Shown here one piece after another: positions 21,482 through 64,000 of a DNA stretch of 64,000 bases. The notes under the pieces are model-generated. The model worked only from the letters and a program-made list of their open reading frames with translations. It was not told the origin of the DNA and searched no databases. Positions within the stretch are counted from its first letter, which is position 1; each line of letters starts with the position of its first letter. Source of the stretch: Mycobacteriales bacterium (GTDB lineage: Bacteria; Actinomycetota; Actinomycetes; BP-191); contig DASVPJ010000041.1 of assembly GCA_036382875.1 (NCBI GenBank), positions 2,505 through 66,504 on the forward strand, written 5' to 3'. The translations under genes were made by a program, and so were the position numbers.

Positions 21482-22588
21482 ATGGCACTTCGTCCTACCA
21501 TCTTCATCGGATCCTCTGCGGAGGGAGAGCTCCTGGCGAACCAGCTTCAACTCAACCTCAGCAGGACGTGTCGACCTGATGTCTGGAGCCAGGGAGTCGT
21601 TCGCGTCGGCTCGGCAACACTGCAAAGTCTCGTAGACGCAAGTCATCGGTACGACTTTGCTGCCCTCCTTCTTACACCGGACGACGTTATAGAACAGCAT
21701 GGCGAAACTGGATTCGCTCCGCGTGACAATGTGATCTTTGAAGCCGGTCTGTTTGTCGGTGCGCTGGGCCCGGGCCGCACGTTCTTGGTGCATTGCCGTG
21801 AAGATGTGCTCAACCTCCCATCTGATCTCCTCGGAGTCACCATGGCCACGTATGACCGGCCAAGCCCAGGGGACAACTTGGAAGCGATCATGGGTCCGCC
21901 CGCCACGAAGATCATGAACGCGATTCAGCATGTCGAGTCAACAGGAGTTGGCCCGAACTACCTGACTGCCTTCAGTGCGTTGGCGCGCGAAGTCCCAAGG
22001 GATGAGCTAGTCAGGATCATCACCGAAGCTAGCGCGCCCAGTGATATGCGCTCGCCGCTTAGTCCCGTAGCCTTGCGGACCTTGGAGCGAGAACTTGAGT
22101 CCAGGGGCCACAGTCGGGATCGCGAGCTTACCCGCGACGATCTGCGGCCAGAGATCCGTAAATATAATGATATTCGAGAGACGACGATTCCGGGTGTTAG
22201 CCGAACGAACAGGCTGGAGGAAACCCTCGGAGAGATAGAGTATAAAGCCCTACGCCAGAAATATCCGGCAAGTCTCACCGCGGAACTACTGGACGGCGCC
22301 GATGGGGACAGAGTGGCAGGCCTCGTTCTAGCTCGCGTAAGGCCCGACAAAGAGAACTTCGACGCAGTGTTGCGCATAATAGAGACGCCTCGGTCGAACT
22401 ATGAGCATGCCAAGGCCATTGAGACAATGATACAGATGAAGAAGTCAGACAAACTCACAGATGACCAGGTGCGGGCTGCCCGACGCGTTGCTGAAGAATT
22501 GCTCGACAAGCGTGTGACGCTAATAGTGGACGGCGACCCCAGCCGGGTTGTGTTGGTCGAAACACTTGCGAGAGAGCTCAATCGGTGA
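21482..22588 (+). CDS. TIR-like (PF10137/COG4271-type) nucleotide-binding domain protein with uncharacterised helical C-terminal domain
   Basis: N-terminal signature (TIFIGSSAEG...DFAALLLTPDDVIEQHG...RDNVIFEAGLFVGALGPGRTFLV...LPSDLLGV); AT-ending codons; C-terminal 230 aa with no recognised motif. Confidence 0.7.
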   Translation: MALRPTIFIGSSAEGELLANQLQLNLSRTCRPDVWSQGVVRVGSATLQSLVDASHRYDFAALLLTPDDVIEQHGETGFAPRDNVIFEAGLFVGALGPGRTFLVHCREDVLNLPSDLLGVTMATYDRPSPGDNLEAIMGPPATKIMNAIQHVESTGVGPNYLTAFSALAREVPRDELVRIITEASAPSDMRSPLSPVALRTLERELESRGHSRDRELTRDDLRPEIRKYNDIRETTIPGVSRTNRLEETLGEIEYKALRQKYPASLTAELLDGADGDRVAGLVLARVRPDKENFDAVLRIIETPRSNYEHAKAIETMIQMKKSDKLTDDQVRAARRVAEELLDKRVTLIVDGDPSRVVLVETLARELNR

Positions 22589-22778
22589 GAGCGCCGCGGC
22601 GCCGCTCTGCGACAATCGGAACGAGCGTGCCGCCACGATGCAATCAGGGCGCGCCCATCGGTGCTGTACCTAGCGAGTTCATGCAGGCCGGTTGGTTGCC
22701 CGGAAGATGTCGGTACTGTGGCTGAAAGCGGACGACACACTCGAACGCGCGGACCCTCACCCCGGGTCCGGATGACTC

Positions 22779-23843
22779 TCAGCGGCTAGCAGCTAGCCGG
22801 TCACGCATCTCACGTGCGGCCGTCTTCCAGTCCTGCTCCGCCGACACGCTGAGGCACCGATCGAGGAGCCGCCGGGCGACATCGTTGAGCTCGGCCTCAC
22901 GAATCGCTTCCTCGACAGCGATGAGCGCCATGGCAAGCCGACGTCGCGTGCCCTCCTCGGCGAGCGTCAGATGCTCGAACGCGCGAACGGCGCCGGCGCG
23001 GTCGAGCTGGACCAACGCTGGCACGAGCCTTCGTGGGATGCCCACGTCATCGGCATTATTGGCGACCTCGACGGCGCGGATCAGGAACTCGTCCCCGACG
23101 GGTGCGCGTACCAACCGGGGCAACGTGTCGAACGCAAGCCGTTGAACACCTTGCTCTGATGATTCGAGCAGCGCAAAGACGTCGTCCTCGTCTAACCCGC
23201 CCCGATCGGCGAGCAGCCGGATCGCGCGCTTGCGCGGCCCCTTGTCCTCAAGCTCGTCGGTCGCCAGCTCGACCAGTCGCTGGACGTCGGATGCCGACAG
23301 TTTGTCGGCATCGGCGACGGTGAGACGCAGCGCCGTTCGCACGTTGCGCTGCTGCACCAGCCGCATGCCGGCCTCGAAGAGGCCGCCGAGCTGCTCGCGG
23401 ATCTTCTGCTCGAAGGTCGCCGGAGTGAATGGTGCGACGGTCAACTGCCAGTCGTACTCGAGGGACCGGAGCACCTGGGTCATTCTACGGTCGCTCGGGT
23501 CGGTCACCCCGTCCAGGCTGCGCAGCTCGTTAAGGATGCGGTATTTCGCGTACGTGGCGTCCAGGCAGAGCACGAGGAACGGCGTGCCCGCTTGCAGCGC
23601 CGTGTCGAGTTCGGTGCGCCAGGTGAGGTCGCCGTAGTCCTCCACGACGACGAAGACGCAGATGTCCGCGTCGAGGACCGACGCACGGGAGTTGGCCTCG
23701 AACCGCGCGCCGACTGCGTTGCTGTACGTGATCGCGCCCTGGAGGTAGGTCATTGGCTGGCCGCCGACGTCACGAACGACCCGTTCGAAGTGTTCGAGTA
23801 CATTGCGCGTGTCCGCTGCGCCGCAGAGCATGATTCGGAGCAT
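22779..23843 (-). CDS. DUF4062-domain protein with C-terminal HEAT/ARM-like repeats
   Basis: ATG 23843 after GGGGG SD; DUF4062-like N-terminus (ADICVFVVVEDYGDLTWRTELDTALQAGTPFLVLCLD); helical repeats in C-terminal half; convergent with the TIR-like gene, with hairpin terminators between. Confidence 0.65.
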   Translation of the reverse strand: MLRIMLCGAADTRNVLEHFERVVRDVGGQPMTYLQGAITYSNAVGARFEANSRASVLDADICVFVVVEDYGDLTWRTELDTALQAGTPFLVLCLDATYAKYRILNELRSLDGVTDPSDRRMTQVLRSLEYDWQLTVAPFTPATFEQKIREQLGGLFEAGMRLVQQRNVRTALRLTVADADKLSASDVQRLVELATDELEDKGPRKRAIRLLADRGGLDEDDVFALLESSEQGVQRLAFDTLPRLVRAPVGDEFLIRAVEVANNADDVGIPRRLVPALVQLDRAGAVRAFEHLTLAEEGTRRRLAMALIAVEEAIREAELNDVARRLLDRCLSVSAEQDWKTAAREMRDRLAASR

Positions 23844-24225
23844 CTGACCCCCAACTGCTTCATCGTCCGAACGCACGTTACCGGCGACCGCGTTGGCGTG
23901 TCAGTGGGAGGATTGGCCCTCAGCCCTCAACCGCGTCGCGCGACGGCGGGTGCTAGCCGCTCGCGCCGACTCCCGCGCGGCCGAGCGACCGGATGCACTT
24001 AACGAGGTATCCCAACAGGCAACAATCGAGACATTGCCCTCTGCGCGGCGCGTACCATTCGGCACCTAGCGGCTGTGCGGCGAGCGCAGTGGCTCCCATA
24101 GTCGGACGGTGCAGAGGGTCCTATTACACCGACCTTGCTGCGGGTTCGCGACTTCGGATGCCGCCGGGCTTGCCTGCGGATCTGATTGCAGCAGGTGACT
24201 CATTAAGCGTCGGGTCGGCATAATG

Positions 24226-24504
24226 TTAGTCGTCGCACGCCTTGCGGATTGCGTCAACGAACGGCAGATCCTCGTCCTTCGTGTCGTCACTCAAAGACTC
24301 GAACGGCCGAATGGCGTCGTGTTCGCGGCCGCTTGACTCCATCCATGCCGCCCATGCGTCATGCACATCGGCGGCAGTTACGGCCGCGCCCTTTGCGCGC
24401 GCGAGTACGGCATACATCAGGAACAGACTTGTTGATTCTGCTGGAATAAGAGCTTCCGGTACTTGTGAGCGGATCTTGTCCGCGAGGTCTGTGATGTAGC
24501 TCAT
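24226..24504 (-). CDS. Small hypothetical protein (92 aa), third gene of TIR operon
   Basis: ATG overlaps stop of upstream membrane-protein gene (ATGA); acidic C-terminus; no recognised domain. Confidence 0.5.
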   Translation of the reverse strand: MSYITDLADKIRSQVPEALIPAESTSLFLMYAVLARAKGAAVTAADVHDAWAAWMESSGREHDAIRPFESLSDDTKDEDLPFVDAIRKACDD

Positions 24505-24998
24505 CGGACAACCAGATACGTTGCCAGCACGAGATAGACTACCCCGAATGCGACCGGCGTCACTTGCTCGATGAAGCCGAGCTCGGCGTAGCGATCGCGC
24601 CACTTGAGCTTGGTCGGAGGGTCGGTGTTCGGCCTCAAGACGACCCACTCGTCCACGAACGGACGCACCGTGAAGTGGTCCTGTTCGATGCGGTTGATCA
24701 CGGTGAACTTCGCTGAATTCAACTTCCGATAACTCCGGAGAAGGAGCCACCAGGCGCCGGCGAGAAGTACTCCAGCAAAGGCTGCAACCACGAGAACGAA
24801 CCGGTCAGGTGCGGCCTGGCCGCCGCTGTCGCTGACCCTTGTGGCAAAGAGCGCAAGACCGGCAACAAGGCCGGTCTGCAAGGTCAGAAAGAAGCTGTTC
24901 GCCGAGGCTCGCCTTGCGGATACCCGATCCGCCATCTCAACCGCAAGCGAGTACAACGCGAGAACTGTGGCCTCGGAACTAGCGGCTGGGACAGTCAT
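24501..24998 (-). CDS. Multi-TM membrane protein (about 165 aa), candidate effector (SLATT-like?) of TIR operon
   Basis: ATG 24998 one nt after TIR gene stop (alternative GTG 25013); TM helices FFLTLQTGLVAGLALFA, FVLVVAAFAGVLLAGAWWLLL, VTPVAFGVVYLVLATYLVV; AT-ending codons. Confidence 0.6.
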   Translation of the reverse strand: MTVPAASSEATVLALYSLAVEMADRVSARRASANSFFLTLQTGLVAGLALFATRVSDSGGQAAPDRFVLVVAAFAGVLLAGAWWLLLRSYRKLNSAKFTVINRIEQDHFTVRPFVDEWVVLRPNTDPPTKLKWRDRYAELGFIEQVTPVAFGVVYLVLATYLVVR

Positions 24999-24999
24999 C

Positions 25000-25419
25000 T
25001 CAGCGCGAGCCACCGATAAGTAGCTTCAGATTGTCCCAGGTCCAGTTATACATCTTGTCGGTTGACTTGGCGGAGGTGGGGCGCGTGCAGGTTCCGGTGG
25101 CCCGCCCACGTAGCAGGAAGTACGACTTGCCTTCCTCCTGGGCAATCGATACTTCAGCGCTGACTCCGGTGGCGGTGTGCGTGTGGTGACCGCACAGCAC
25201 TACAACCTGGTCGACGCCCTTGATCCGTCTCCGCGCGCGCGACCGCCAATCAGGCGACGCTTCTTTGATGGACATGTCAACTACCTCGAATGGCGAATCC
25301 GAGTTCTTTGCCTGGCCAATCAGCAAGGTCTTGAGATCACTGTCGTTGTCATAGTCGAAACTTACAAACACCCGTGTCTTCGCCACGCCTCTCCCCTGTC
25401 TGGTGCTGTACATACCCAT
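25000..25419 (-). CDS. TIR-domain protein, ThsB-like (DUF1863/MTH538 TIR-like)
   Basis: RVFVSFDYDNDSD...VVVLCGHHTHTATGVSAEVSIAQEEGKSYFLL matches ThsB/DUF1863 pattern (vFfSFhy.D...LIG..T..s.WV..EI); AT-ending codons; start ATG 25419 (TTG 25443 also possible). Confidence 0.7.
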   Translation of the reverse strand: MGMYSTRQGRGVAKTRVFVSFDYDNDSDLKTLLIGQAKNSDSPFEVVDMSIKEASPDWRSRARRRIKGVDQVVVLCGHHTHTATGVSAEVSIAQEEGKSYFLLRGRATGTCTRPTSAKSTDKMYNWTWDNLKLLIGGSR

Positions 25420-25884
25420 CGGCCCTGGCGTCCGATCCGGCAACGACTGATGCCATAACCTATCGCACTAGCTTGTACAGATCGTTCGATGTTCGTGCGC
25501 AGCCGGGTGTCGGCTGGGACGAGACGCCGCCGACACTTCAGCGTGAGTGTGAGCGTCGGTGTGCGGGGGCGAGAGCGGCGTGGGCCGCGCGCCTCGCGGG
25601 CAGGCCGTTCTTGCCTGCCCGCTCTTCCTGTCCGTAGGGGCCGTAGAGGCTCCGAGGTCAAGGGCCGCCGGGGGCGGTCGCGGAGCGACGCGCGAAGCGC
25701 GCCCTTGAGCTTGGAGGGGCGGCCCCGCAGGATGCGCGGCCCGGGGCGCTCGACCGGACGTGCCCGGCTTGCGGTGTACTCCTGTGGACAAGGCGGGGCC
25801 GGCGGCGAGTTCTCCACAGATTCCGTTCGGCCTCTTGCGGGCGCTTCGGCGGTCAGGTGAACTTCAACGATGGTCCATGATCGC

Positions 25885-26127
25885 TCACTCGATCTGATCG
25901 AGACGTCCCATGAGTTGGCTCGGCTTCACGTCGAGCGCTCGGGCGAGGCGCACGACGATCGCGACGGTCGGGTTGCGGCGGCCGGTCTCGATCTCGGAGA
26001 GGTACGCGACGCTGATCCCGGCGCGCTCGGCGCAGACCGGCTGCGTGAAGCCGCGGCGGTGCCGCAGTTCGCGCACCCACAGGCCGAGCGCTTGGCAGAG
26101 CCGCTCGTCCAGATCGTCGGCTGGCAT
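25885..26127 (-). CDS. XRE-family (Cro/CI-type) HTH transcriptional regulator
   Basis: HTH pattern LRHRRGFTQPVCAERAGISVAYLSEIETGRRNPTVAIVVRLARAL; divergent from phage-like genes at 26192. Confidence 0.7.
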   Translation of the reverse strand: MPADDLDERLCQALGLWVRELRHRRGFTQPVCAERAGISVAYLSEIETGRRNPTVAIVVRLARALDVKPSQLMGRLDQIE

Positions 26128-26191
26128 GGACCCGCATCGTACGGACGCGCCGCACTTCGCGGCGGTCCACCCACGACCACGGGAGGACGGC

Positions 26192-26530
26192 ATGACGCAG
26201 ACCATCGTTGACGAGATCGACCGCACGTTCCTGCTGCTGCGCGTTGCGGCAGCCCGCGACGACGGCGCGGACGAGGCGACGGGGACGCGCTGGTGCGCGC
26301 ACGTGTGCGACCCGGCGAGCCCGCTCGCGGGTCTCTACGCCTTCGCGGACACCCTCGCCGAGGCGCGGGACGCGGTGACGGTCCTGGCGTGGACGGCGGT
26401 ACTCGCGGGCGAGCTGCTGCCGTTCGGCTACACCGCCGACGACCTGGCAGGCATCCACGTCGCGGTGACGACGACCACCCCGTACGACGCCGCCTGGCTC
26501 AACGCCGCAGTCGCGAACGACGCGGCGTAG
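26192..26530 (+). CDS. Hypothetical island protein
   Basis: ATG after GGGAGGACGG SD; GC3-rich; 112 aa, no recognised domain. Confidence 0.5.
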   Translation: MTQTIVDEIDRTFLLLRVAAARDDGADEATGTRWCAHVCDPASPLAGLYAFADTLAEARDAVTVLAWTAVLAGELLPFGYTADDLAGIHVAVTTTTPYDAAWLNAAVANDAA

Positions 26531-26542
26531 GTAGGAGGCGCC

Positions 26543-27028
26543 ATGACGACACAGATCGACGGCTGCCGGCCGCACCTGACCAGCGACCGCGCGGACGAGT
26601 CGTACTCCTCCTGGGTCGGTCGGGCGCGGTGCGCCGGGTGGTCGGACGTGTTCGGCGACGAGAGCAGCAACGACGAGGCGCTGGCGCTCTGCGGGGCGTG
26701 CCCGGTGCTGCGGCAGTGCCGCCGATGGGCGCTGCGCACCGCGGTGGACGGCGTGGCCGGCGGCATGACGTCCGCGGAGCGCGCGGCGTGGCGGCGCGAG
26801 CACGGCGAGCCGGAGCCGGTCGTGAGCGTCGAGGACTTCCTGCTGACCGAGGTGGTCAGCGCCGACCGGACGTGGGGCCGTGGCCGCTCCGAGGCGATCC
26901 TCAACGCGGTAGCACGCTGGACCGACGACGGACACACCGCTCGCGAGATCGGCCTCCGGCTCGGCGTCACCCGACGCACCGTGAACAGGCTCCGCGCTAC
27001 CTGCCGCGAATGCCGACTCATCGCCTGA
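26543..27028 (+). CDS. WhiB-like (Wbl) Fe-S transcription factor with extra C-terminal HTH
   Basis: Cys motif C...C..C....C (CAGW...CGACPVLRQCRRWAL), GVAGGMTSAER turn; C-terminal AREIGLRLGVTRRTVNRL; typical of actinophage/AICE regulators. Confidence 0.75.
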   Translation: MTTQIDGCRPHLTSDRADESYSSWVGRARCAGWSDVFGDESSNDEALALCGACPVLRQCRRWALRTAVDGVAGGMTSAERAAWRREHGEPEPVVSVEDFLLTEVVSADRTWGRGRSEAILNAVARWTDDGHTAREIGLRLGVTRRTVNRLRATCRECRLIA

Positions 27029-27130
27029 CCCGACCCCGTTCCTCGACCTCTGCTGTTCTCCCGACCCCTTCGTCTCTTCTTCTTCGCTTCTCTCCTGATG
27101 TTGTTGATCTTGTTGCTGACCTGATCCGCT

Positions 27131-27338
27131 CCACCCCGCTGACCTGCCCTCCCTTCTCCAATGTGCGTGTCGAGGGAGTGCCACATGTTCGGGGGTGCGA
27201 AGCAGCCCCGAACATGTGGCACGACCGACCCCCGGCGGAGTGCAAAACCGCAGGTCAGCGGGGTGGAGCGGCCTCCGAAAAAGATCTTCGAGGGTGGTTC
27301 CTCGGGTGGTGCCTCGGTGCGTGGACCGAGGCACCACC
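27131..27338. promoter_or_regulatory. Cluster of strong nested palindromes upstream of xis-int (candidate regulatory/recombination-accessory region)
   Basis: 17-bp inverted repeat ccaccccgctgacctgc (27131-27147) and gcaggtcagcggggtgg (27250-27266) enclosing a perfect 17-bp stem hairpin (27178-27222); a further 14-bp stem hairpin at 27305-27338; contains CTGACCTG also present in att core and att-adjacent arms. Confidence 0.5.
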
Positions 27339-27475
27339 CTGAGCGGGTCCCCGGTTACGAGAACTTCACGGAGATCTCACCGCCGTGGTAACTCGGCCGT
27401 GAACCTTTCGTGAAGTCCCGAGCCGACCGTCCCCCCACGTCCCGGTAGCCCGGGACGGGCGAGAGGAGAGCCACC

Positions 27476-27745
27476 ATGAGCGCCATCGACCCGGCGTCGT
27501 TGCCGCCCGTTCTCGACGTCCCCACGGCCGGCCGGCTGCTCGGACTCGGCCGCTCCGCGGCCTACGACCTCGCCGTCGCCGAGCTCTGGCCGACGCCGGT
27601 CCTGCGGCTCGGACGGCGGCTGCGGATCCCGACCGCTCCGTTGCTGGCGCTTCTCGGCCTCGACCCTGGTCCGCTGTCGCAGTCCGGTGGCATGGTGACC
27701 GGGTCACCAACTGCCCCGGCTGCCTCCGAAGGAGGCAGGCCATGA
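27476..27745 (+). CDS. xis: Excisionase/Xis-family HTH DNA-binding protein
   Basis: GAGAGGAGAG SD; MerR/AlpA-like HTH (LDVPTAGRLLGLGRSAAYDLAVAELWPTPVLRLGRRLRIP); stop overlaps integrase ATG (ATGA). Confidence 0.7.
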   Translation: MSAIDPASLPPVLDVPTAGRLLGLGRSAAYDLAVAELWPTPVLRLGRRLRIPTAPLLALLGLDPGPLSQSGGMVTGSPTAPAASEGGRP

Positions 27746-28974
27746 CGAAAGAGTCGGGCGTGTACCAGCGGCACTCACGGCGCTGCCCGCGCAACGCGGG
27801 CGGTCGTGGCTACGCGCCGCACCGGTGCACCGGCACGTGGTCCTACGTCATCGACGTGGGCCGGGACGCCAACAACGAGAGAAGGCAGGAGACGAAGGGA
27901 GGCTTTCCGACCAAGCGGGAAGCGGTCGAGCAGCGGCGCAAGCGTCTCGGCGAGCTGAGGTCGCGGACGGGCGAGGCGTACGGGACGACGGTCGGCGCGT
28001 ACCTGGAGCAGTGGCTGTCGTGGAAGCGCGGCCTGCGGGACAGCACCCGGCTGTCCTACCGGCAGCACCTGGACGACTACCTGGTCCCGGCGCTTGGGCA
28101 GTACCGGCTCGCCGACCTGGAACGTCGGCCGGAGCTGATCGAGCAGATGTTCTCCAACCTCGTCACCGGGGTCAGCGGCAAGCCGTTGTCGCCGGCGTCG
28201 GTGCGGCGCATCTACTCGACGCTGCGCAGCGCGCTCAACAGCGCGGTGAAGCGGCGGATGCTGGCGCACAACCCGGCGTTGCACGTCGAGCTGCCGCGGA
28301 CGGCGCTGTACCGGCCGGTCGTGTGGGACGCGCAGCAGGTCGGCATCTTCCTCGACGCGATCCAGGGCCACCGGCTCTACGCGCTCTACGGCGTCGTCGT
28401 CCTGACCGGACTCCGGCGCGGCGAGGCGCTCGGGCTCCGGTGGGAGGACGTGGACCTGGACGAGGGCGTGCTGCACGTACGCCAGCAGGTCGTCGCGGTC
28501 GGCACGGAGGTCCGCATCGGCCCGCCGAAGACGAAGGCGGGGGAGCGGACGGTCGCGCTGTCCGAGGCGACCGTGGCGATGCTGCGCGAGCACCAGGCGC
28601 GGCAACGGCGCGAACGGCTCGCGTGGGGCGAGGCGTGGCACGACAGCGGCCACGTGTTCACCTACGAGGACGGCCGGATGCTGCGGCCGGACCACGTGAC
28701 GCACCTGTTCCGCAGGCTGGCGAAGGAGGCGGGGCTGCCGCTGATCCGGCTGCACAACCTGCGGCACACCAGCGCGAGCCTCGCGCTGGCGGCGGGCGTC
28801 CCGATGAAGGTCGTCAGCGACCGGCTCGGCCACTCCAGCGAGTCGATCACCTCGGCGCTCTACACGGTCGTCGTGCCCGCTGTGGCACGCGAGGCGGCCG
28901 AGCGGATCGCCAACGTCGTGCTGCTGCCGAGGGCACGGAGCGACGAGCACGAAGCCGTGTTAGCGCGGCGTTAG
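27742..28974 (+). CDS. int: Tyrosine-type site-specific integrase
   Basis: C-terminal catalytic region (LRRGEALGLRWEDVD, HNLRHTSASLALAAGVPMKVVSDRLGHSSESITSALY); adjacent to tRNA-Lys and attR. Confidence 0.9.
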   Translation: MTKESGVYQRHSRRCPRNAGGRGYAPHRCTGTWSYVIDVGRDANNERRQETKGGFPTKREAVEQRRKRLGELRSRTGEAYGTTVGAYLEQWLSWKRGLRDSTRLSYRQHLDDYLVPALGQYRLADLERRPELIEQMFSNLVTGVSGKPLSPASVRRIYSTLRSALNSAVKRRMLAHNPALHVELPRTALYRPVVWDAQQVGIFLDAIQGHRLYALYGVVVLTGLRRGEALGLRWEDVDLDEGVLHVRQQVVAVGTEVRIGPPKTKAGERTVALSEATVAMLREHQARQRRERLAWGEAWHDSGHVFTYEDGRMLRPDHVTHLFRRLAKEAGLPLIRLHNLRHTSASLALAAGVPMKVVSDRLGHSSESITSALYTVVVPAVAREAAERIANVVLLPRARSDEHEAVLARR

Positions 28975-36418: not shown

Positions 36419-37474
36419 TCAGCAGCCGGGGACCGCCGACGACACGCGGCAAGGGGTGCCGGCGCCGCCGTAGTTGTGACCGGTGTTGTCGACGCCCACC
36501 CACCCGTACGGGGTGTGCACGCCGATGTGCTCCTCGTTCGTCTGACCGTTCTGCATCAGGTTGCCGGGCTTGCCGACGCGGGCCACGACCGGGGTACGGC
36601 GGGGCGCGACGTCGACGAGGGGCGCGGCCGGCTCGGTGCCGCCGGTGCGCGCCGGGGCGGACGCCACGCGGGTGCCGGCGGCGGCCGCCGCGCCCGACCG
36701 GGCGGCGGGGAGGGGCGCGGAGCGGCCGGCGTCCTGGACGTACACGGTGCCCCGCGGCGCGGCCATCGCCCGCGGCGCGGAGCCGTGCGGCGCGACGGTG
36801 TACGTCACCGCGCCCGCCACGGCGACGGCGAGCGCGGCCGCGCCGGCGAACGAGAAGCCGCCGCCCTGCGCGAGCTTGGCCGCCCTGACCGCGGCGGTGC
36901 GGCGGCGGAGCCGGACCAGCGCGCCGAGCCCGAACGCGCCGCTCGGCACGCTGGCGAGGGCCCGGCGGAACTGGTTGCGCGCGCGGAACAGCTTCTGCCG
37001 CACGGCGTTGTCGTTGGTCCCCAGGAAGCGGGCGATCTCGCCGACGCTCATCTCGTCGAACGCCTGGAGCGCGAGCACCTGGCGGGACGCGGGGGCGAGG
37101 CCGTCGAGCACCTTGTGCACGGCCTGGCTGCGGTCGGCGGCGAGCACCGGCTCGTCGGCGGGCGGCGCCACCTCGCGCTCGTAGGTCTCCTCGGTGAGCG
37201 GCTGCTCCGGCGCCTGCGCGCGGGCGAAGTCGCGGGCGACGTTGACGGCGATCGCCGCGATGTACGGCCACGGGTCGCGGGACGGGTCGATCCGGTGCGC
37301 GTGCAGCAGGACCCGGACCATCGTCTCCTGCGCGACGTCCTCGCTGTCGAACGCCGGGAACCGGCGCGCCGCGAGGCCCTTCACCCGGCCGTAGTAGCGG
37401 CGGTAGAGCACCTGGAACCGCTCGTCGTGGTCGTCCGCGCGTTCGGCGGCGACGTCGATCGGCTGGGCGCTCAC
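36419..37474 (-). CDS. ECF sigma factor with C-terminal membrane-anchored extracytoplasmic extension (sigma/anti-sigma-like fusion)
   Basis: GTG 37474 after GGAG SD; sigma region 2 (FQVLYRRYYGRVKGLAARRFPAFDSEDVAQETMVRVL) and region 4 (LALQAFDEMSVGEIARFLGTNDNAVRQKLFRARNQF) followed in the same frame by a TM helix (FSFAGAAALAVAVAGAVTY) and a 150-aa C-terminal domain. Confidence 0.7.
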   Translation of the reverse strand: MSAQPIDVAAERADDHDERFQVLYRRYYGRVKGLAARRFPAFDSEDVAQETMVRVLLHAHRIDPSRDPWPYIAAIAVNVARDFARAQAPEQPLTEETYEREVAPPADEPVLAADRSQAVHKVLDGLAPASRQVLALQAFDEMSVGEIARFLGTNDNAVRQKLFRARNQFRRALASVPSGAFGLGALVRLRRRTAAVRAAKLAQGGGFSFAGAAALAVAVAGAVTYTVAPHGSAPRAMAAPRGTVYVQDAGRSAPLPAARSGAAAAAGTRVASAPARTGGTEPAAPLVDVAPRRTPVVARVGKPGNLMQNGQTNEEHIGVHTPYGWVGVDNTGHNYGGAGTPCRVSSAVPGC

Positions 37475-55294: not shown

Positions 55295-55311
55295 ATACCC
55301 CTAGTGGGTAT
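55295..55311. promoter_or_regulatory. Putative CsoR operator (GC-rich inverted repeat ATACCC-N5-GGGTAT)
   Basis: atacccctagtgggtat 29 bp upstream of csoR start; resembles actinobacterial CsoR operator consensus. Confidence 0.5.
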
Positions 55312-55488
55312 TCCGGCCGACTGCCTGGGCGCCCGGGCGGGCCCCGGGCAGCCGGGTGCACCCGCGCGTTCTGTGGAGCTCAGGGGACGGTCGTCCGCGT
55401 GGCGATCTTCACAGTTGGGGCACGGCCGCGGCGGGCACGGCCGCGGCGCGCGCGGCGCGCGGCGCGCGGCGGCCGGCGCGGGCCCCGC

Positions 55489-56624: not shown

Positions 56625-59600
56625 CTACGGCCTAACGCCCAGCCGGTCGAACACGACGTTCGTCCCGGTTGCGCCCGTCCGGCGCTGGCCCAGCACGGTG
56701 ATCGTCATGGTGTGGGCCCGGTCGGCGAGCCCGGAGAACGTCCGCACGTAGCCCCAGCGGGCCGACGAGTACCAGTTGTCGAACGTTCCCTTGCTCACGC
56801 CGTCGATGACCACCGTCGCCTTGCCCATGTTCGGGCCGAGCGCGGTCACCCAGTCGATGCCGCGGCCGCGGAACGTGATCGTCACCGTCGCGCCCGCGAC
56901 GTCCTCGACGGCGTACGCGCCGCCGCTCGCCGCCGACGTGCCGTAGCGCGCCCAGCCGAACGTCACCGCCGGCGTCGCCGCCAGCGACTGGCCGACCTTG
57001 AACGCGTCCACGGCCACGTCAGTGCCCTTGCCCGAGGACGACCCCCGCTCCCCGCGCACCACGATCTTGAGCGTGTGCTTGGCGTTCGTCAGGCCGCCGA
57101 TCGACCGGGTGAGCGCGCCGGAGGTGGTCGAGTAGAAGTTCACCCGCGACGCCTTGAGGACGTTGTCGACGTAGACGTCGGCGAGGCCGTACGTCGGCCC
57201 GCGCACCCCGTACCAGGTGATCCCGGTGCCGGTGAACACGTACGACGCCGTCGCGCCGCGCAGGTGCGCGACGTGGTACGTCCCGCCCTGCGCCCCAGAC
57301 CAGCCGGCCCGCCGCCACGCCTGGCGGACCCCGACCGAGGTCTCCTGCTCCACGGTCGACGCGCGGTACGCGCGCGACGCGCCGGGCGAGGCGTTGCCGG
57401 CGAGGTCGGTCACGCCGGACACGGCGAGCGTGTAGAGCTGGCCCGGCACCAGCGGCGCCGACGGCGTGAGCAGCGCCCGCTGGACGGTCGTCGCGGTGCA
57501 GGCGACGGCGACGTTGGCCGACGTGCGGCAGGACAGCGCGGCCGGGACGACCGTCGCGGTGCCGGTGAGCAGCAGCCGCACGGTGCCGGCCGTGACGTTC
57601 TTGACCGGCTCGTTCCACGTGACGGTGTGGGTCGGCGTCAGCGCCGCCGACGGCACCGGCACGGACGTGACCGGCGCGGCCGTGTCGACGGTCCACGCGA
57701 ACGTCACGGCCTCGCCGGCGTTGCCGACGTCGTCCGTCGCGGTGACCGACAGCGTGTGCACGCCCGCCGACACGGTCGGCGTGAACGGCGAGTCGCACGC
57801 CTCCGGCACGCCGTCCAGCGCGCACTCGTACGACGCCACGTCGGGCGCCGCCGAGGAGAACGCGAACGTCGGCGTGGTGTCGTTGCCGAGCGCCGGCGGC
57901 GTCGCGGTGAACGCCGCCGCCGGGCCCGTCACGTCCACGGTCCAGCCCCACGACGCGGGGACGCCGGGGTTGCCGAGCGCGTCGTACGCGACGACGGCGA
58001 ACGTGTGCCCCGCCTCGCCCAGCGACGACAGCGTCACCGGCGACGCGCAGTCGCCGGCCGCGCCGTCGACCGTGCACACGTAGTGGTCCGCGCCGTCCGC
58101 CGCGAACTCGAACGTCGCCGCGTCGGCGCCCGTGCGGGCCGGCGGCTTCGCGGTCAGTGCCGCGTCGGGCCCGACCGTGTCGACGGTCCACGCGTGCGTG
58201 GCGGGCGCGCCGGCGTTCGCCAGGTCGTCCTTCGCGACGACCGCGAACGTGTGCGGCCCGTCCGCGAGCCCCGAGAGCACGAGCGGCGACGCGCACGCGC
58301 TCGCGACGCCGTCCACGGTGCACGTGTACGACGCCACGTCCTCGTCCGGCGCGGCGAACTCGAACGTCGCCCCGGTCGCGTTGGTCAGCGTCGCGGGCGC
58401 CGCGGTGATCCCCGCGTCCGGGCCCGCCGTGTCGACCGTCCAGGTCCAGGTGGCGGGCGTGCCGGCGTTGGCGAGGTCGTCCTTGGCGACGACGGAGAAC
58501 GAGTGCGCGCCGGCCGCCAGCGACGACAGGGTCAGCGGGGACCCGCAGGCGCTCGTGACGCCGTCCACCGTGCAGGTGAAGCCGGCCAGGTCCGCGGCGG
58601 CCGAGGAGAACGCGAACGACGCCGCGGTCGACGCCGTGCGCGCCGCCGGCTTGGCGGTGAGCGAGACGGCGGGGCCGGTCTGGTCGACCGTCCACGCCCA
58701 GGTGGCCGGGACGCTGTTGTTGCCGAGGTCGTCGCGCGCGACGACGGCGAACGTGTGGTCGCCCTGCGTGAGCGAGGACAGGTTCAGCGGCGACGTGCAG
58801 GCGGCGGCGGCGCCGTCGACCGTGCACGTGTAGCCGGCCAGGTCGCTCGCCGCCGAGCCGAACTCGAACGTCGCCGTGGCGAGCGCGGTCCGCGCCGGCG
58901 GCTTCGACGTCAGCGAGACCGCCGGACCGGCCTGGTCCACGGTCCACGTGTACGACGCGGTGGCGGCGTTGAGCGCCGCGTCGCGCGCCGTCAGCACGAA
59001 CGTGTGCGACCCGGTGGTGAGGCCGTTCGAGGTGTACGCGCCGGTGCCGCACGTGACGGGGGAGCCGTCGAGCGCGCAGGCGTAGGTCAGCGCGTCGTCG
59101 GGCGTCCACCCGAACGCCGCCGTGGCCGACGCGGTCCGCAGCGGCGGCACGCTGGTGAGCTCCGGCGCGGCGGGCGCGGTCGCGTCCACGGTCCACGCGC
59201 GGGTCGCGGCGGCCGACGTGGCGCCGTTCTTCGACGCGGTGACGGAGAACGTGTGCGGGCCGTCGGCCAGCGACTCGTAGGTCACGCCGCTGGTGCACGG
59301 CGCGGGCGCGCCGCCGTCGAGCGTGCACGCCGTCGTGGTCCCGGCGGCGGAGGTGAACGCGAACGTCGCGGAGCGGCTGTTGACCAGTGCGGCCGGGCCG
59401 CTCGTGATCACCGGCGCGGGGACCGCGATGGTCCACGAGAAGACCGTGTCGGCACTCTGCCGCCCCGCCTGGTCGACCGTCCGCACGGTGAACGTGTGGC
59501 CGCCGAACGTGAGGCTCTGGTAGTCCGCGGTGCCGAAGCACGACGACGCGCCGCCGGTGTCGAGGCGGCACGTGTAGTACGACGCGTCGTCCGACGGCGA

Positions 59601-62600
59601 CGCGAACTCGAAGTGCGCCGTGGTCGCCTCGGTGGACGCGTTCGGCGTCGCGGACAGCACCGGCGCCGCGGGGTCGGTGAGGTCGACGTACCACGTGTAC
59701 TGGTTGCCGCTCTGGTTGCCCGCCGGGTCGGACGCGACGACGTTGAAGGTGTGCTGCCCCTCGGCGAGGCCGCTCACGGACGCGAAGGACGACGAGCACC
59801 CGACGGGCGCGTTGTCGACCTTGCAGGCGTAGGTCGCCGACTGGTCGCTCTGCCACTGGAACAGCGCGCTCGTGGCGGCCGACCGCGCGCTCGGCACCTG
59901 GAAGAACCCCGGGAACGCCGGTGGCACCGTGTCCACGGTCCACGACCGGGTCGCGGCGGCGGACAGGTTGCCCGCGGCGTCGACAGACCGGACCGCGAAC
60001 GTGTGCGCGCCCTGGCCGACCGTGTAGCCCACGCCGCTCACGCAGGTCGCGGGCGTCTGGCTGTCGAGCTGGCACTGCGCGCCGGTGGCGTCGCCGGTCA
60101 GCTCGAACGTGAACGCCGCGCTCGTGCTGCGCACCAGGCCGCTCGGGCCGGTGAGGATCGTCGGCACCGGCGCGGGCGTCCCGTCGACGGTCCACGTGCG
60201 CGTCGCGAGCGGGCTCTCGTTGCCGTTCTCGTCGACCGAGACGACGGCGAACGTGTGCTCGCCCGAGGACAGCGGGCCGCTGTACGTCTTCGACGCGGAG
60301 CACGACGCCCAGGCGGTGTCGTCCAGCGCGCAGAGGTGCGTCGTGCCGGTGTTCGTGAAGGTGAACGTGAACGCGTTCGCCCCGCCCGGCGCAGTCGTCC
60401 CGGACGGCCCGCCGGTGATCGACGGCGTGGCGGGCGGGACCTGCTCGACGGGCGTGTAGAGCCCGGCGTTGCCGGTGCCGACGAGGTCCAGGCCGTCGCC
60501 GCGGTGGGCGAGCGTGGCCATGGCGACGTTCGTGAAGCCGCGGTTGATCGAGTGCCACGCGGCACCGTCGTCGGTGGACTTGTACATCGACACGGTGCCG
60601 GAACGGCCGGCCAGCACGACGCCGCTCGGCGACACGGACAGCCGGTCGGCCACGTCGGGCAGCGGCGACGGCGTCCACGTGCCGGTGCCGCCGTCGCGGT
60701 ACAGCCTGACGCCGCCGGCGCCGTCGGTGGCGACGTACGCGACGGTGCGGTCGGCGGGGTGCGTGGCGAGCGTCTGCACGACCGAGCCCGGCTGCGGCAG
60801 CTCGCGCGGGGTCATCGCGAGCGCGGGCGACGGGTCCGCCGAGAACGACGCGCGGGAGACTCGCGGCGCGGCGCCGCGGACGACCCAGACGTCGGTCGCG
60901 GAGACGGCGTCGACCTCGGTGACCGAGGTCTGGCCGAGCGGCGTCCACGTCGACCCGGCGTCGCCGCTGCGGACGACCTGGCCGCCGGCGGCGAGCCACA
61001 CCACCGGCGCGTCGGGCACCGCGGACACCGACGCGACGCTCGCGGGGGCACCGGCGGCGGCCCAGTCGCCGCTGCCCACGTCGATCCGGTACAGCGCCGT
61101 GCCGAACACCGCGAGGGCGCGCAGCGCGCTGGAGGCGTCGCGGACGAGCGCGACCTGCTTCGCGTCGGTGCCGGTCGCGGTCGTCGTGCCGAGCGGGCCG
61201 AACGACGCGCCGCCGTTCGTCGAGCGGAACACGCCGGCGTCGGTCGCCGCGTAGAGGTGCAGCGGGTTGGCCGGGTCGGCGACGACCTGGCGGACGTTGC
61301 GGCCGCCGAGCGAGGTGAACTGGAACTTGTCGTTGACGATCGTGATCGCGCGCGTCGCGGTGCTCGACGTGCCGGTGAGGGCGGCCTTGACCGTGACCGC
61401 GGTGCCGGTGGGGGAGGCGCTCGCCGGGGCGGTGTACGTCGTGTCGGAGAACGTCCCGCGCGACGCGGACCAGGTGAGCTTCGGCTCCGCGACGGAGTTG
61501 CGCAGCGTCGCGGTGAACGTCGCGGTCAGCGTGGCGTTGACCCGGCTGACGGCCGGCGGGATCGCGAACGCGAGCGTGGTGTCCGCCGACCCGGGCCAGA
61601 ACTGCGAGGCGTCGTCGAAGTTCGTGAAGGCGTCGATGCGGCCGTCGCCGGTCACGTCGCCGAACGTCCCGTGGTGGATCGACCCGGAGAGGGCGTGCAC
61701 GGGCGCGTACGCGTTCGGGCCCGTGCGCCGCAGCAGCACCGGCCCGCGGTACGTGTACCCGGCGAGGTCGAGCACGCCGTCGCCGTCGACGTGCACGGCC
61801 TGCAGCTGGCGCGGACGCCACGGGAGGAGCTGCACGGGCGTGGTGCTCACGGCGCCGGTGCCGTTCGCGAGGTTGGGGAGGACGAGCAGCTTCGGCGGGA
61901 AGAACGTGTAGTTCTCGCCGCCGACCCCGACGACGAGGTCGTTCCATCCGTCGCCGTCGGTGTCGGCGATCCGCGGCTCGGGCGCCATGCCGACGTTGTA
62001 CGTGACCTCGGACGCGATCGCGCCGAAGCCGTTGTTGATGCCGACCTCGATCGTGGTGCTGTTGTTGGTCGACCCCTTGATCCCGACCGCGACGTCGGGC
62101 CGGCCGTCTCCGGTGAGGTCACCGACGTCGAACGAGTCGGCCTCGAACGTCGACATCAGCGCGACCGGCTCCTGGAACGTGCCGTTGCCGTTGCCCTTCT
62201 CGAACAGCAGGTTGCCGAACCACTCCAGCCGGATCGCGTCGAGGTGACCGTCGCCGTCGAAGTCCGTGAGCCGCGCGCGGTTGCCGGACCGGGCGCCGCC
62301 GGTCGTGGGGACCTTCGCGTCGGGCGTGAACGTCCCGGTGCCGTTGTTGCGCCACACCTGGTAGCGCCAGGTCTGCGTGCTGGTCGAGCCGAACGGCACG
62401 TACACGTCGACGTCGCCGTCCTCGTCCACGTCGCCGAGCTCGAGGTCGAGGACGAAGTCGTTCGTGCGGGTGAAGCCGTTCGCGGCGAACGTGCTGCCGG
62501 CCGCGCTGGTGGTCCTCGTGAGGCCACTGCCGTTCCACGACACGGTCACCAGGTTCCAGACCTCGAGGCCGTTGCAGCAGGTCTGCAGCAGCACCACGTC

Positions 62601-63035
62601 GGGCTTGCCGTCGCCGGTCACGTCCGCGATGTCCGCGTCCTGGCCGCCGCCGGCCGGCGACGCGACCTCCTCGGCGAACCCGCCCCCGGGGACGCCGCTC
62701 GCGATCGTGATCGTCGCGTCGGCGTAGACGCTCGGGTCCTCGACCGCCGTCGCGCGCACGACCGCGACCGGGTCCGCGGGCACCGTCGCGGGCGGCGTGT
62801 AGAGACCGCTCGCGCCGACGGACCCGGCGCCGCGCCGCAGCGACCACGTCACCGTCTGGTCGGACAGGTTCGTGGTCGTCGCCGTGAGCTGGCGGGTGCC
62901 GCCGACCAGCACCGACGAGACGCCGGGCGTGACCCGCACCGTCGGCGGGTCGATCGCCGACGCGGACGACGCGGGCAGGGTCAGAGCGGCCGCCCCCACG
63001 GCCACCACGAGGACGCGCGAGAGCGCACGACGCAC
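56625..63035 (-). CDS. Giant secreted surface protein (2136 aa): FG-GAP/VCBS beta-propeller, Asp-box propeller, about 10 tandem Ig-like domains, C-terminal beta-sandwich domains
   Basis: GTG after GAGGGGGG SD; signal peptide; FG-GAP repeats (DVTGDGKPDVVLL, DFDGDGHLDAI, DTDGDGWNDLVVG); repeated about 95-aa units of form TWTVD...P...LTS.P...F.F......C.LDG....C.SP..LS.L..G.HTF.V.A.D..GN. Confidence 0.85.
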   Translation of the reverse strand: MRRALSRVLVVAVGAAALTLPASSASAIDPPTVRVTPGVSSVLVGGTRQLTATTTNLSDQTVTWSLRRGAGSVGASGLYTPPATVPADPVAVVRATAVEDPSVYADATITIASGVPGGGFAEEVASPAGGGQDADIADVTGDGKPDVVLLQTCCNGLEVWNLVTVSWNGSGLTRTTSAAGSTFAANGFTRTNDFVLDLELGDVDEDGDVDVYVPFGSTSTQTWRYQVWRNNGTGTFTPDAKVPTTGGARSGNRARLTDFDGDGHLDAIRLEWFGNLLFEKGNGNGTFQEPVALMSTFEADSFDVGDLTGDGRPDVAVGIKGSTNNSTTIEVGINNGFGAIASEVTYNVGMAPEPRIADTDGDGWNDLVVGVGGENYTFFPPKLLVLPNLANGTGAVSTTPVQLLPWRPRQLQAVHVDGDGVLDLAGYTYRGPVLLRRTGPNAYAPVHALSGSIHHGTFGDVTGDGRIDAFTNFDDASQFWPGSADTTLAFAIPPAVSRVNATLTATFTATLRNSVAEPKLTWSASRGTFSDTTYTAPASASPTGTAVTVKAALTGTSSTATRAITIVNDKFQFTSLGGRNVRQVVADPANPLHLYAATDAGVFRSTNGGASFGPLGTTTATGTDAKQVALVRDASSALRALAVFGTALYRIDVGSGDWAAAGAPASVASVSAVPDAPVVWLAAGGQVVRSGDAGSTWTPLGQTSVTEVDAVSATDVWVVRGAAPRVSRASFSADPSPALAMTPRELPQPGSVVQTLATHPADRTVAYVATDGAGGVRLYRDGGTGTWTPSPLPDVADRLSVSPSGVVLAGRSGTVSMYKSTDDGAAWHSINRGFTNVAMATLAHRGDGLDLVGTGNAGLYTPVEQVPPATPSITGGPSGTTAPGGANAFTFTFTNTGTTHLCALDDTAWASCSASKTYSGPLSSGEHTFAVVSVDENGNESPLATRTWTVDGTPAPVPTILTGPSGLVRSTSAAFTFELTGDATGAQCQLDSQTPATCVSGVGYTVGQGAHTFAVRSVDAAGNLSAAATRSWTVDTVPPAFPGFFQVPSARSAATSALFQWQSDQSATYACKVDNAPVGCSSSFASVSGLAEGQHTFNVVASDPAGNQSGNQYTWYVDLTDPAAPVLSATPNASTEATTAHFEFASPSDDASYYTCRLDTGGASSCFGTADYQSLTFGGHTFTVRTVDQAGRQSADTVFSWTIAVPAPVITSGPAALVNSRSATFAFTSAAGTTTACTLDGGAPAPCTSGVTYESLADGPHTFSVTASKNGATSAAATRAWTVDATAPAAPELTSVPPLRTASATAAFGWTPDDALTYACALDGSPVTCGTGAYTSNGLTTGSHTFVLTARDAALNAATASYTWTVDQAGPAVSLTSKPPARTALATATFEFGSAASDLAGYTCTVDGAAAACTSPLNLSSLTQGDHTFAVVARDDLGNNSVPATWAWTVDQTGPAVSLTAKPAARTASTAASFAFSSAAADLAGFTCTVDGVTSACGSPLTLSSLAAGAHSFSVVAKDDLANAGTPATWTWTVDTAGPDAGITAAPATLTNATGATFEFAAPDEDVASYTCTVDGVASACASPLVLSGLADGPHTFAVVAKDDLANAGAPATHAWTVDTVGPDAALTAKPPARTGADAATFEFAADGADHYVCTVDGAAGDCASPVTLSSLGEAGHTFAVVAYDALGNPGVPASWGWTVDVTGPAAAFTATPPALGNDTTPTFAFSSAAPDVASYECALDGVPEACDSPFTPTVSAGVHTLSVTATDDVGNAGEAVTFAWTVDTAAPVTSVPVPSAALTPTHTVTWNEPVKNVTAGTVRLLLTGTATVVPAALSCRTSANVAVACTATTVQRALLTPSAPLVPGQLYTLAVSGVTDLAGNASPGASRAYRASTVEQETSVGVRQAWRRAGWSGAQGGTYHVAHLRGATASYVFTGTGITWYGVRGPTYGLADVYVDNVLKASRVNFYSTTSGALTRSIGGLTNAKHTLKIVVRGERGSSSGKGTDVAVDAFKVGQSLAATPAVTFGWARYGTSAASGGAYAVEDVAGATVTITFRGRGIDWVTALGPNMGKATVVIDGVSKGTFDNWYSSARWGYVRTFSGLADRAHTMTITVLGQRRTGATGTNVVFDRLGVRP

Positions 63036-63266
63036 TGTGCCCCCCTCAGGGACAGTCGGGTGTGTGTTCAGGTGTGAGGGGTCACCCTAGCCACGCGGCA
63101 AGCCCGACGGAACGATCCGGGGCGAACTCGCCCGGAGGTTGGTCCGGACGGGCCGTGGGCGATGACCCGTTCGGGCGAGAGAGGGGTGACGACCCGCTCG
63201 ACGGCGCCGTGAGCCCGTTCCGTGAAGCCCCGGCGGCCGTCGCCCGCGTGGTGATCTTCACAGAAC

Positions 63267-63346
63267 GGGTCCGGCTCCGGCTCCGGGTCCGGGTCCGGGT
63301 CCGGCTCCGGGTCCGGGTCCGGGTCCGGGTCCGGGTCCGGGTCCGG
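63267..63346. repeat. Hexanucleotide tandem repeat (GGGTCC/GGCTCC)x13
   Basis: 13 contiguous 6-nt units, two variants, about 230 bp upstream of the giant surface-protein gene. Confidence 0.8.
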
Positions 63347-63353
63347 CGACGGC

Positions 63354-63665
63354 GTGGCCCGCGGACCGGTGAGTTCCGGGCGCCGCGGACGTCCACCCCG
63401 TGTGGTGGTCGAGGTCGTGGACGGCGGGGCCGTCGTGGCGACCGTGCGCATCGACGGCGACGTGCCGGGGCTGTTCCTCGTGGACGCGGTCGCCCGGCTC
63501 ACGCTGGCCGCCCGCCGGCTCGGCTGGCGGCTCGCGGTCGCCGACCCGGAGCTACGCGAGCTGCTCGCCCTCGCGGGGGTCGACGTCGAGCCGGGGCGGC
63601 AGCCCGAACGCCGCGAAGAGGCGTTCGTCGATGTAGTGGTGCAGCCCGACGACCCGCCCGCCTGA
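63354..63665 (+). CDS. Hypothetical ORF (doubtful; overlaps convergent sigJ-like gene by about 110 bp)
   Basis: GC3-rich frame starting right after the hexamer repeat; no motif. Confidence 0.2.
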   Translation: MARGPVSSGRRGRPPRVVVEVVDGGAVVATVRIDGDVPGLFLVDAVARLTLAARRLGWRLAVADPELRELLALAGVDVEPGRQPERREEAFVDVVVQPDDPPA

Positions 63666-64000
63666 CGTCTCGATCACCTGGATCGCCCACGGCTCCCAGC
63701 CGCCGCCCTCGGCGGGCTTGTACGCGCCGAACGCCGGCAGTCCGTTCGCCCGCACCGGCAGCAGCCGCGAGCCGCGGCAGCCGATGCCGTGGCCCAGGTA
63801 GAACGCGCCGATCTCCTTCGGCCCGCGCAGCCACATCGGGAACGGCGGCATGGTGAACGCCGCGTCGTCCGACACCAGCGTGACCAGCGTGTCGACGTCG
63901 TAGCGCTCGAACGCCTCGACGTAGCGCCGCAGCAGCGCCGCGTGCTCCTCGTCGAGGTCGACCGGCGCGGCCGGCCGCCGCTCGTCCAGCGTCGCGCGGG
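63552..64000 (-). CDS. Partial ECF sigma factor with C-terminal SnoaL-like domain (SigJ-type); 5' part beyond window end
   Basis: Frame open to window edge; C-terminal SnoaL_2-like pattern (RYVEAFERYDVDTLVTLVSDDAAFTMPPFPMWLRG...WEPWAIQVIETSGGRVVGLHHYID). Confidence 0.6.
   Translation of the reverse strand, partial: RATLDERRPAAPVDLDEEHAALLRRYVEAFERYDVDTLVTLVSDDAAFTMPPFPMWLRGPKEIGAFYLGHGIGCRGSRLLPVRANGLPAFGAYKPAEGGGWEPWAIQVIETSGGRVVGLHHYIDERLFAAFGLPPRLDVDPREGEQLA

Follow-up and report, generated by a model that had tools for sequence, protein, structure and literature searches.

The adhesin genes hmw1A and hmw2A of Haemophilus influenzae are preceded, at 69-213 bp upstream, by tandem arrays of 7-, 8- or 9-nt units present in 12-38 copies (Dawid et al. 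1999, as reviewed in PMC2651432). These repeats are AT-rich and are reported to be situated within the promoter region, and expression was shown there to follow the number of units, the output being graded and not set by frameshifts. In Helicobacter pylori, a promoter-proximal T-tract acts as a rheostat of sabA (PMC4081817): this homopolymer adjoins the -35 element, outside the core promoter, a change in its length rotates the upstream DNA relative to the core promoter, and it acts through UP-like elements and the alpha subunit of RNA polymerase. Mycobacterium tuberculosis carries promoter VNTRs of 54-58 bp upstream of lpdA, cysG and dop, whose copy number varies (PMC12817950); their ~55-bp units carry the promoter itself, and more copies mean more promoters.

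The element analysed here, a promoter-region array of short units whose copy number appears to vary, belongs to a known kind but has an unusual host, an uncultured soil bacterium of the Mycobacteriales. By analogy, it would work most like the promoter-proximal rheostat repeats, and its placement most resembles that of the hmw repeats. It shares with the hmw loci a short, multi-copy, non-coding array a few hundred bp upstream of the gene for a very large secreted or surface protein, with a copy number that appears to vary between strains. In contrast to the hmw repeats it is a GC-rich hexamer, is separated from the giant gene by the latter's conserved upstream block, lies nearer to the promoter of a divergent gene, and belongs to an uncultured soil actinobacterium. 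As in sabA, the repeat is upstream of a -35 element and outside the core promoter, and length changes would turn the upstream DNA with respect to it, but the tract is GC-rich and stands 25 nt away from a -35 of the ECF type. With the M. tuberculosis repeats it has in common the order of the host, a position just upstream of a probably leaderless gene, an apparent difference in copy number between near-identical genomes and the unreliability of short-read assemblies. MIRU-VNTRs and mycobacterial promoter repeats have units of ~40-100 bp with a promoter, whereas here the unit is 6 bp long and the promoter motif, TGAGTTC-N13-CGTC, lies outside the array.

In the window, by which we mean the whole 64-kb stretch of DNA analysed (G+C content, 73%), the microsatellite spans positions 63267-63346 and consists of 13 complete hexamers GG[G/C]TCC (63267-63344) followed by a partial GG (63345-63346). 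Writing G for GGGTCC and c for GGCTCC, the order of the units is G c c G G G c G G G G G G, the last six forming a pure (GGGTCC)6 run (63309-63344). Tandem Repeats Finder reported the array at 63266-63346, with a period of 6, 13.5 copies, 94% matches and a score of 141, and the exact period-6 run within it reached 41 nt, whereas 100 first-order Markov simulations produced none above 20 nt. It was the sole long microsatellite of the window, since the same program found no short-period array near its scale elsewhere in the 64 kb, and the longest homopolymer, dinucleotide and trinucleotide runs outside the tract were 6, 11 and 14 nt, respectively. In length, the tract is thus what is looked for in contingency loci, a long uninterrupted array of short units beyond chance expectation. 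The distance from the GTG start of the giant gene (63035, minus strand) to the first repeat unit was 231 nt; the earlier note, which had read this stretch as a (GGGTCC/GGCTCC)x13 repeat with two unit variants about 230 bp 5' of that gene, was accurate on both counts.

The giant gene (56625-63035, minus strand) encodes a 2136-aa secreted protein with a signal peptide, FG-GAP and Ig-like (Big_13) domains, and without an LPXTG motif. Within it, an array with a period of 252 nt (57677-58948; 5.1 copies, 70% matches), the same in the window and in the JGI record described below, probably encodes repeated Ig-like (Big_13) domains. Upstream of the gene we found a conserved block, GGAACG-N11-CGAAC(T)CGCC (63108-63135), at 74-79 nt from the giant gene start in the window and in three relatives lacking the repeat (L003, L006 and L017). 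The block is presumed to be part of the promoter or regulatory region of the giant gene. A degenerate ECF motif for the same gene, cGAGTTC-N14-CGTC (63106-63129, minus strand), was discarded as probably not functional, its spacer being wrong and the motif not conserved in the relatives. A search of positions 62000-64000 for known RNA families, sigma-70 promoters and intrinsic terminators returned nothing relevant. A distal promoter next to the repeat is possible, for example at the extended -10-like sequence TGTGAAGAT (63262-63254, minus strand).

The earlier note had also placed the tract between the giant gene and convergent ORFs. This applied only to an ECF sigma factor gene further right, whereas the nearest ORF is a small plus-strand gene which is divergent from the giant gene. 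The small gene (63402-63665) starts with a GTG at 63402 or 63405 (gene callers chose 63402, 63405 or 63417) and is probably leaderless. It is preceded by an ECF-type promoter (63370-63393, plus strand) composed of a -35 element, TGAGTTC (63370-63376), a 13-nt spacer and a -10 element, CGTC (63390-63393). The motif cG[AG]TGAGTT[CT]-N13-CGTC matched the 64-kb window once, with 0.15 matches expected by chance, and 29 of the 41 loci retrieved up to then carried it, as a rule in a single copy just upstream of the small gene (for instance L003 4002-4025, L010 2923-2946 and L012 2926-2949). These sequences came from metagenome-assembled genomes (MAGs) labelled Mycobacteriales, Frankiales or Solirubrobacterales and from unlabelled metagenome contigs, and the spacer was 13 nt long in all 27 distinct sequences carrying the motif. 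Two of the loci, L036 and L038, contained two divergent copies each. The start codon is mostly located 8-12 nt after CGTC, which implies leaderless transcripts. Alignment of the upstream regions also revealed the promoter nature of 'ATG/GTG AGT TCC', a candidate upstream start of the small gene that we rejected because its letters belong to the conserved -35 element. A conserved -35, a CGTC -10, a fixed spacing, the same downstream gene across relatives and an adjacent ECF sigma gene are the features expected of an ECF promoter, and all of them were found. Judging from this pattern, TGAGTTY-N13-CGTC appears to be the only recognisable promoter near the tract and to drive the small plus-strand gene.

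The sigma factor gene is represented in the window by its 3' part (63552-64000, minus strand), running off the window end. It appears to be ECF56-like, since it has a SnoaL_2 C-terminal extension and matches TIGR02960/PRK08241 (PMC7730460), and the motif upstream of the small gene is probably its target. In the window, the 3' end of the small gene overlaps that of the sigma gene by 114 nt, and an overlap of ~85-120 nt was seen in every relative in which both genes had been called (in L003, 4001-4303 and 4184-5170). The relatives with enough flanking sequence shared the whole arrangement, with the small gene divergent from a giant FG-GAP/Ig gene and overlapping at its 3' end a convergent ECF sigma gene. 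The small protein has homologues of 67-106 aa, at 63-79% identity, and for its structure AlphaFold2 predicted a beta-beta-alpha-beta-alpha core with pLDDT values above 90 and a disordered C-terminal tail, encoded in the overlap. A STAS fold was considered for this protein and dropped: Foldseek against the PDB gave nothing significant, and Pfam STAS_2 was matched by only 1 of 17 members (E = 0.022). The 3' overlap could reflect antisense coupling of the small and sigma genes, or the small protein could be an unrecognised partner of ECF56-type sigma factors. The conserved promoter TGAGTTY-N13-CGTC and the small ECF56-linked gene may in the long run prove more interesting than the microsatellite.

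The tract lies between these two promoter modules, 132 nt from the conserved block of the giant gene and 25 nt, measured from its end, from the -35 of the small gene. With respect to the putative transcription start of the small gene, as estimated from the promoter, it occupies approximately -58 to -135 (to -153 with 16 units). The distance from the block to the small gene's -35 is 233 nt with 13 units or 251 nt with 16, and the same gap measures 48-55 nt in four syntenic sequences (L003, L006 and L017 among them), from which it follows that this lineage acquired ~180-200 nt of additional DNA as filler separating the two conserved modules. In none of the 39 further loci retrieved up to that stage did Tandem Repeats Finder detect a comparable microsatellite; they correspond to 34 distinct relatives once duplicates of this locus and identical pairs were dropped, and across this set the repeat appears to be lineage-specific. 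One unit equals 206 degrees of helix, the flanks return into phase every 7 units, and 18 bp amount to 1.7 turns.

In position, the tract differs from the repeats that govern phase variation, being neither in a reading frame nor between core promoter elements. Gain or loss of hexamers outside coding sequence shifts no reading frame, and, because the tract lies in no -35/-10 spacer, ON/OFF switching by spacing is unlikely. The (TA)n repeat of hifA/hifB in H. influenzae lies between the -10 and -35 elements and produces ON/OFF switching, whereas the present tract is outside the only defined -35/-10 pair. What the two systems share is a microsatellite placed between divergent genes, beside genes for surface structures, the (TA)n array being located between divergent fimbrial promoters (van Ham et al. 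1993, cited in PMC2651432). As the tract is non-coding, lies outside that pair and is well removed from the giant gene's block, both frameshift and spacer switching are ruled out on present evidence. The phase variation of the giant gene through promoter spacing that the earlier note had proposed found no support in this comparison, because the repeat sits 25 nt outside the -35 of another gene's promoter and 132 nt beyond the giant gene's own block, which keeps its 74-79 nt from the start in repeat-free relatives too.

Part of the extra DNA is a hairpin element directly left of the tract (63213-63269, CCCGTTCCGTGAAG-N28-CTTCACAGAACGGG), whose arms are formed by 63214-63227 pairing with 63256-63269. 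The minus strand of this tract-side copy folds well as DNA (z = -5.2), and a comparison of 63213-63269 with Rfam gave no match. The element is dispersed: a 78%-identical copy of its ~51 nt is present at 55364-55414, between the M23 peptidase and csoR genes (alignment score of 52, against 22.8 ± 3.5 for shuffles), and a further copy with an identical 21-nt core was found in a related locus (L020, 3806-3856). This core is GTGGTGATCTTCACAGAAC, and its minus strand is the TGTGAAGAT that resembles an extended -10 element. The extra DNA therefore looks like a dispersed hairpin element plus a repeat grown at its edge. We also considered a tandem duplication of the 5' end of the small gene as its source, but the local alignment score behind this idea, 28, was also attained in 6 of 300 shuffles. 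Of the three copies of the element, two directly precede a tandem array on the plus strand, namely the hexamer tract and a 15-mer repeated 4.3 times at 55418-55483.

The tract contains 13 units in the window and 16 in two other assemblies of the same locus, one from JGI (3300034687 Ga0334905_000008) and one from ENA (ERZ27253064 k141_263303). The three extra units are all GGGTCC and fall in the pure run, which has 9 units in both of these records against 6 in the window. The 200-kb JGI record showed 0 mismatches to the window over 17,778 + 656 + 21,233 nt (~39.7 kb), and the length of the tract was the only difference found in the sequence compared. The ENA contig, which encodes the exact giant protein, had no mismatch over ~16.6 kb left of the tract and ~300 nt right of it. 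The two other arrays, 252 nt x 5.1 inside the giant gene and 15 nt x 4.3 at 55418-55483, were identical across the compared sequence. A single SNP, in 21 kb, distinguishes ENA from both the window and JGI (window position 36673), indicating some strain heterogeneity in the underlying data. The 90%-identity cluster of the small protein has three members (NCBI HEX8004160.1, JGI and ENA); the next relative is 79% identical and without the repeat, and no further length alleles were present in the collections searched. A Logan contig of the locus (L046) ends inside the giant gene, short of the tract. The number of units was therefore found to differ between assemblies, 13 versus 16, and not to be invariant, the outcome that the earlier note had set against its own reading. 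This suggests a real length polymorphism in the population, and the confinement of the three extra units to the pure GGGTCC run fits replication slippage, which we infer to be the cause of the length difference.

Taking these data together, we favour with moderate confidence the view that the tract is a hypermutable, non-coding, lineage-specific spacer between divergent promoter modules, with a graded effect on expression or none. In the proposed sequence of events, a dispersed hairpin element would have inserted between the two conserved divergent modules, and the microsatellite would have grown at the edge of the element. Slipped-strand mispairing in the pure GGGTCC run would then gain or lose whole units, giving rise to the 13- and 16-unit alleles. 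The plus strand of the tract self-pairs via G-C and G-T/G-U pairs and the minus strand forms an interrupted hairpin, and since both strands fold back, slippage should be favoured. To our knowledge, MutS/MutL-type repair is absent from the Mycobacteriales in general, and the lack of such indel repair would plausibly add to the effect of strand self-folding. M. tuberculosis has no mismatch repair and avoids repeats (PMC2430213). Changes in unit number would alter only the distance and the helical phase between the modules, not the spacing within either core promoter, and the effect on expression, if any, would be graded and may be nil; we consider it somewhat probable that the regulatory effect of unit number is weak or absent. 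If the length variation is real, the tract is a natural hypervariable site in an uncultured soil actinobacterium that separates otherwise identical genomes and is usable as a strain marker; it also warns that short-read MAGs disagree at such sites.

The difference in copy number might alternatively have arisen in assembly, the locus having one stable length, probably of 16 units, and the 13 units of the window reflecting a short-read collapse of the pure 54-nt run. Two other records agree on 16 and the window stands alone with 13, the difference is confined to the very stretch that becomes a cycle in a small-k de Bruijn graph, and collapse is the usual direction of assembly errors in repeats (PMC12817950). 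However, the final k of 141 suggested by the contig names exceeds the length of the whole tract (78-96 nt), so that, from the way such assemblers work, each allele should need supporting reads, and the SNP between ENA and JGI points to some strain heterogeneity in the data. We regard an assembly artefact as possible, though rather unlikely.

The spacer reading must also be weighed against a selected contingency locus or rheostat, in which the unit number would tune transcription of the giant gene, of the small ECF-dependent gene or of both, either by setting the distance and helical phase of upstream elements relative to the core promoters or by coupling the divergent promoters. The length does differ between otherwise identical assemblies, and no second long microsatellite occurs in the 64 kb, the genome otherwise avoiding them; the rarity of long perfect microsatellites in bacteria is the usual argument for their upkeep by selection. 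The described systems supply further support: the 25 nt from tract to -35 are comparable to the promoter-proximal tract of sabA (PMC4081817), the position beside the gene of a giant secreted protein resembles that of the hmw loci, with their 12-38 copies at 69-213 bp upstream of adhesin genes (PMC2651432), and promoter tandem repeats of M. tuberculosis vary in copy number next to leaderless promoters (PMC12817950). Against this, the tract lies within no -35/-10 spacer, the block of the giant gene, at a distance of 132 nt, functions in relatives that have no repeat, the GC-rich tract is unlike an UP element, and a repeat found in a single lineage offers no evidence of conservation. Tuning by selected changes in unit number is accordingly judged unlikely. 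The more specific version, a rheostat in a free-living soil member of the Mycobacteriales whose units would set the distance and phase between the ECF56-type leaderless promoter and the promoter of the 2136-aa protein, possibly with help from a hairpin or G-quadruplex, so that subpopulations would differ in surface-protein or sigma-circuit output, seems to us distinctly improbable. If true, it would extend to environmental actinobacteria a class of switches known mainly in host-adapted pathogens, and any change of expression with unit number would mean that repeat-based tuning of surface proteins is not confined to such pathogens.

An action of the tract through non-B DNA, be it a G-quadruplex on the plus strand, an i-motif on the minus strand or a slipped hairpin, with the number of G-tracts setting the stability of a structural block or supercoiling sink between the promoters, is very improbable. 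Positions 63309-63341 are the longest match of the window to the G-quadruplex pattern (G3N1-7)4, and both strands of the tract self-fold. A threshold of about 1.2 is commonly used with G4Hunter, but the G4Hunter-type score was just 0.83 for the pure run and 0.60 for the whole tract, the folding energies of the tract were unexceptional in comparison with shuffles (z = -0.1 to -2.4), and the C-rich loops favour duplex or hairpin.

The tract is non-coding. When all six frames were read through the region, the plus-strand Gly-Ser frame was interrupted 12 nt ahead of the tract by a TGA at 63252 and offered no start codon ahead of the repeat, and the minus-strand Asp/Glu-Pro (PDPEPD) frame was open from 63068 to 63502. 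The G+C by codon phase in the flank 63071-63266 was 0.65/0.75/0.76, whereas genes in the window reach 0.99 (giant gene) or 1.0 (core of the small gene) in one phase; the GC3 signal of coding sequence is thus absent from the flanks (0.76 versus 0.99-1.0). With the minus-strand ORF as query, Pfam returned a weak low-complexity match to PARP and nothing else, and HMMER against 1.84 billion representative proteins gave matches to unrelated proteins centred only on the repeat (residues ~44-85). This ORF was therefore set aside as spurious, and the doubt that the earlier note had attached to it was justified. No gene was called over the tract by the ENA or JGI gene callers, nor, it seems, by NCBI, as the numbering of the M23 peptidase (HEX8004158) and the small protein (HEX8004160) leaves room between them for the giant gene only. 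A Gly-Ser linker fused to the small protein was rejected on account of the TGA at 63252, the missing start codon and the homologues of 67-106 aa, which have no such extension. That the tract encodes an acidic (Asp/Glu-Pro)n stretch of a minus-strand protein, or a (Gly-Ser)n linker N-terminal to the small one, is hardly credible. In its favour are the open minus-strand frame, a unit length divisible by three and a G/C variant in the third codon position of both frames (synonymous, GGG/GGC, in the Gly-Ser frame and Asp/Glu in the other); against it are the results above, the assignment of 'ATG/GTG AGT TCC' to the -35 element and the mere 150-190 nt that separate the two genes in relatives.

Two further loci of the window deserve mention. 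The sequence ATACCCACTAGGGGT (55297-55314, minus strand) abuts the start (55296) of the gene for a CsoR-family repressor, which may be leaderless, and we take it to resemble a CsoR operator; after csoR come an HMA-domain protein gene and one for a P-type ATPase. The region ~21482-28974 encodes a CAP12-PCTIR_TIR protein (21482-22588), a ThsB_TIR protein (~25000-25413), an HTH regulator, a WhiB-like protein and a tyrosine integrase (27742-28974), and looks like an integrated element with anti-phage defence genes.
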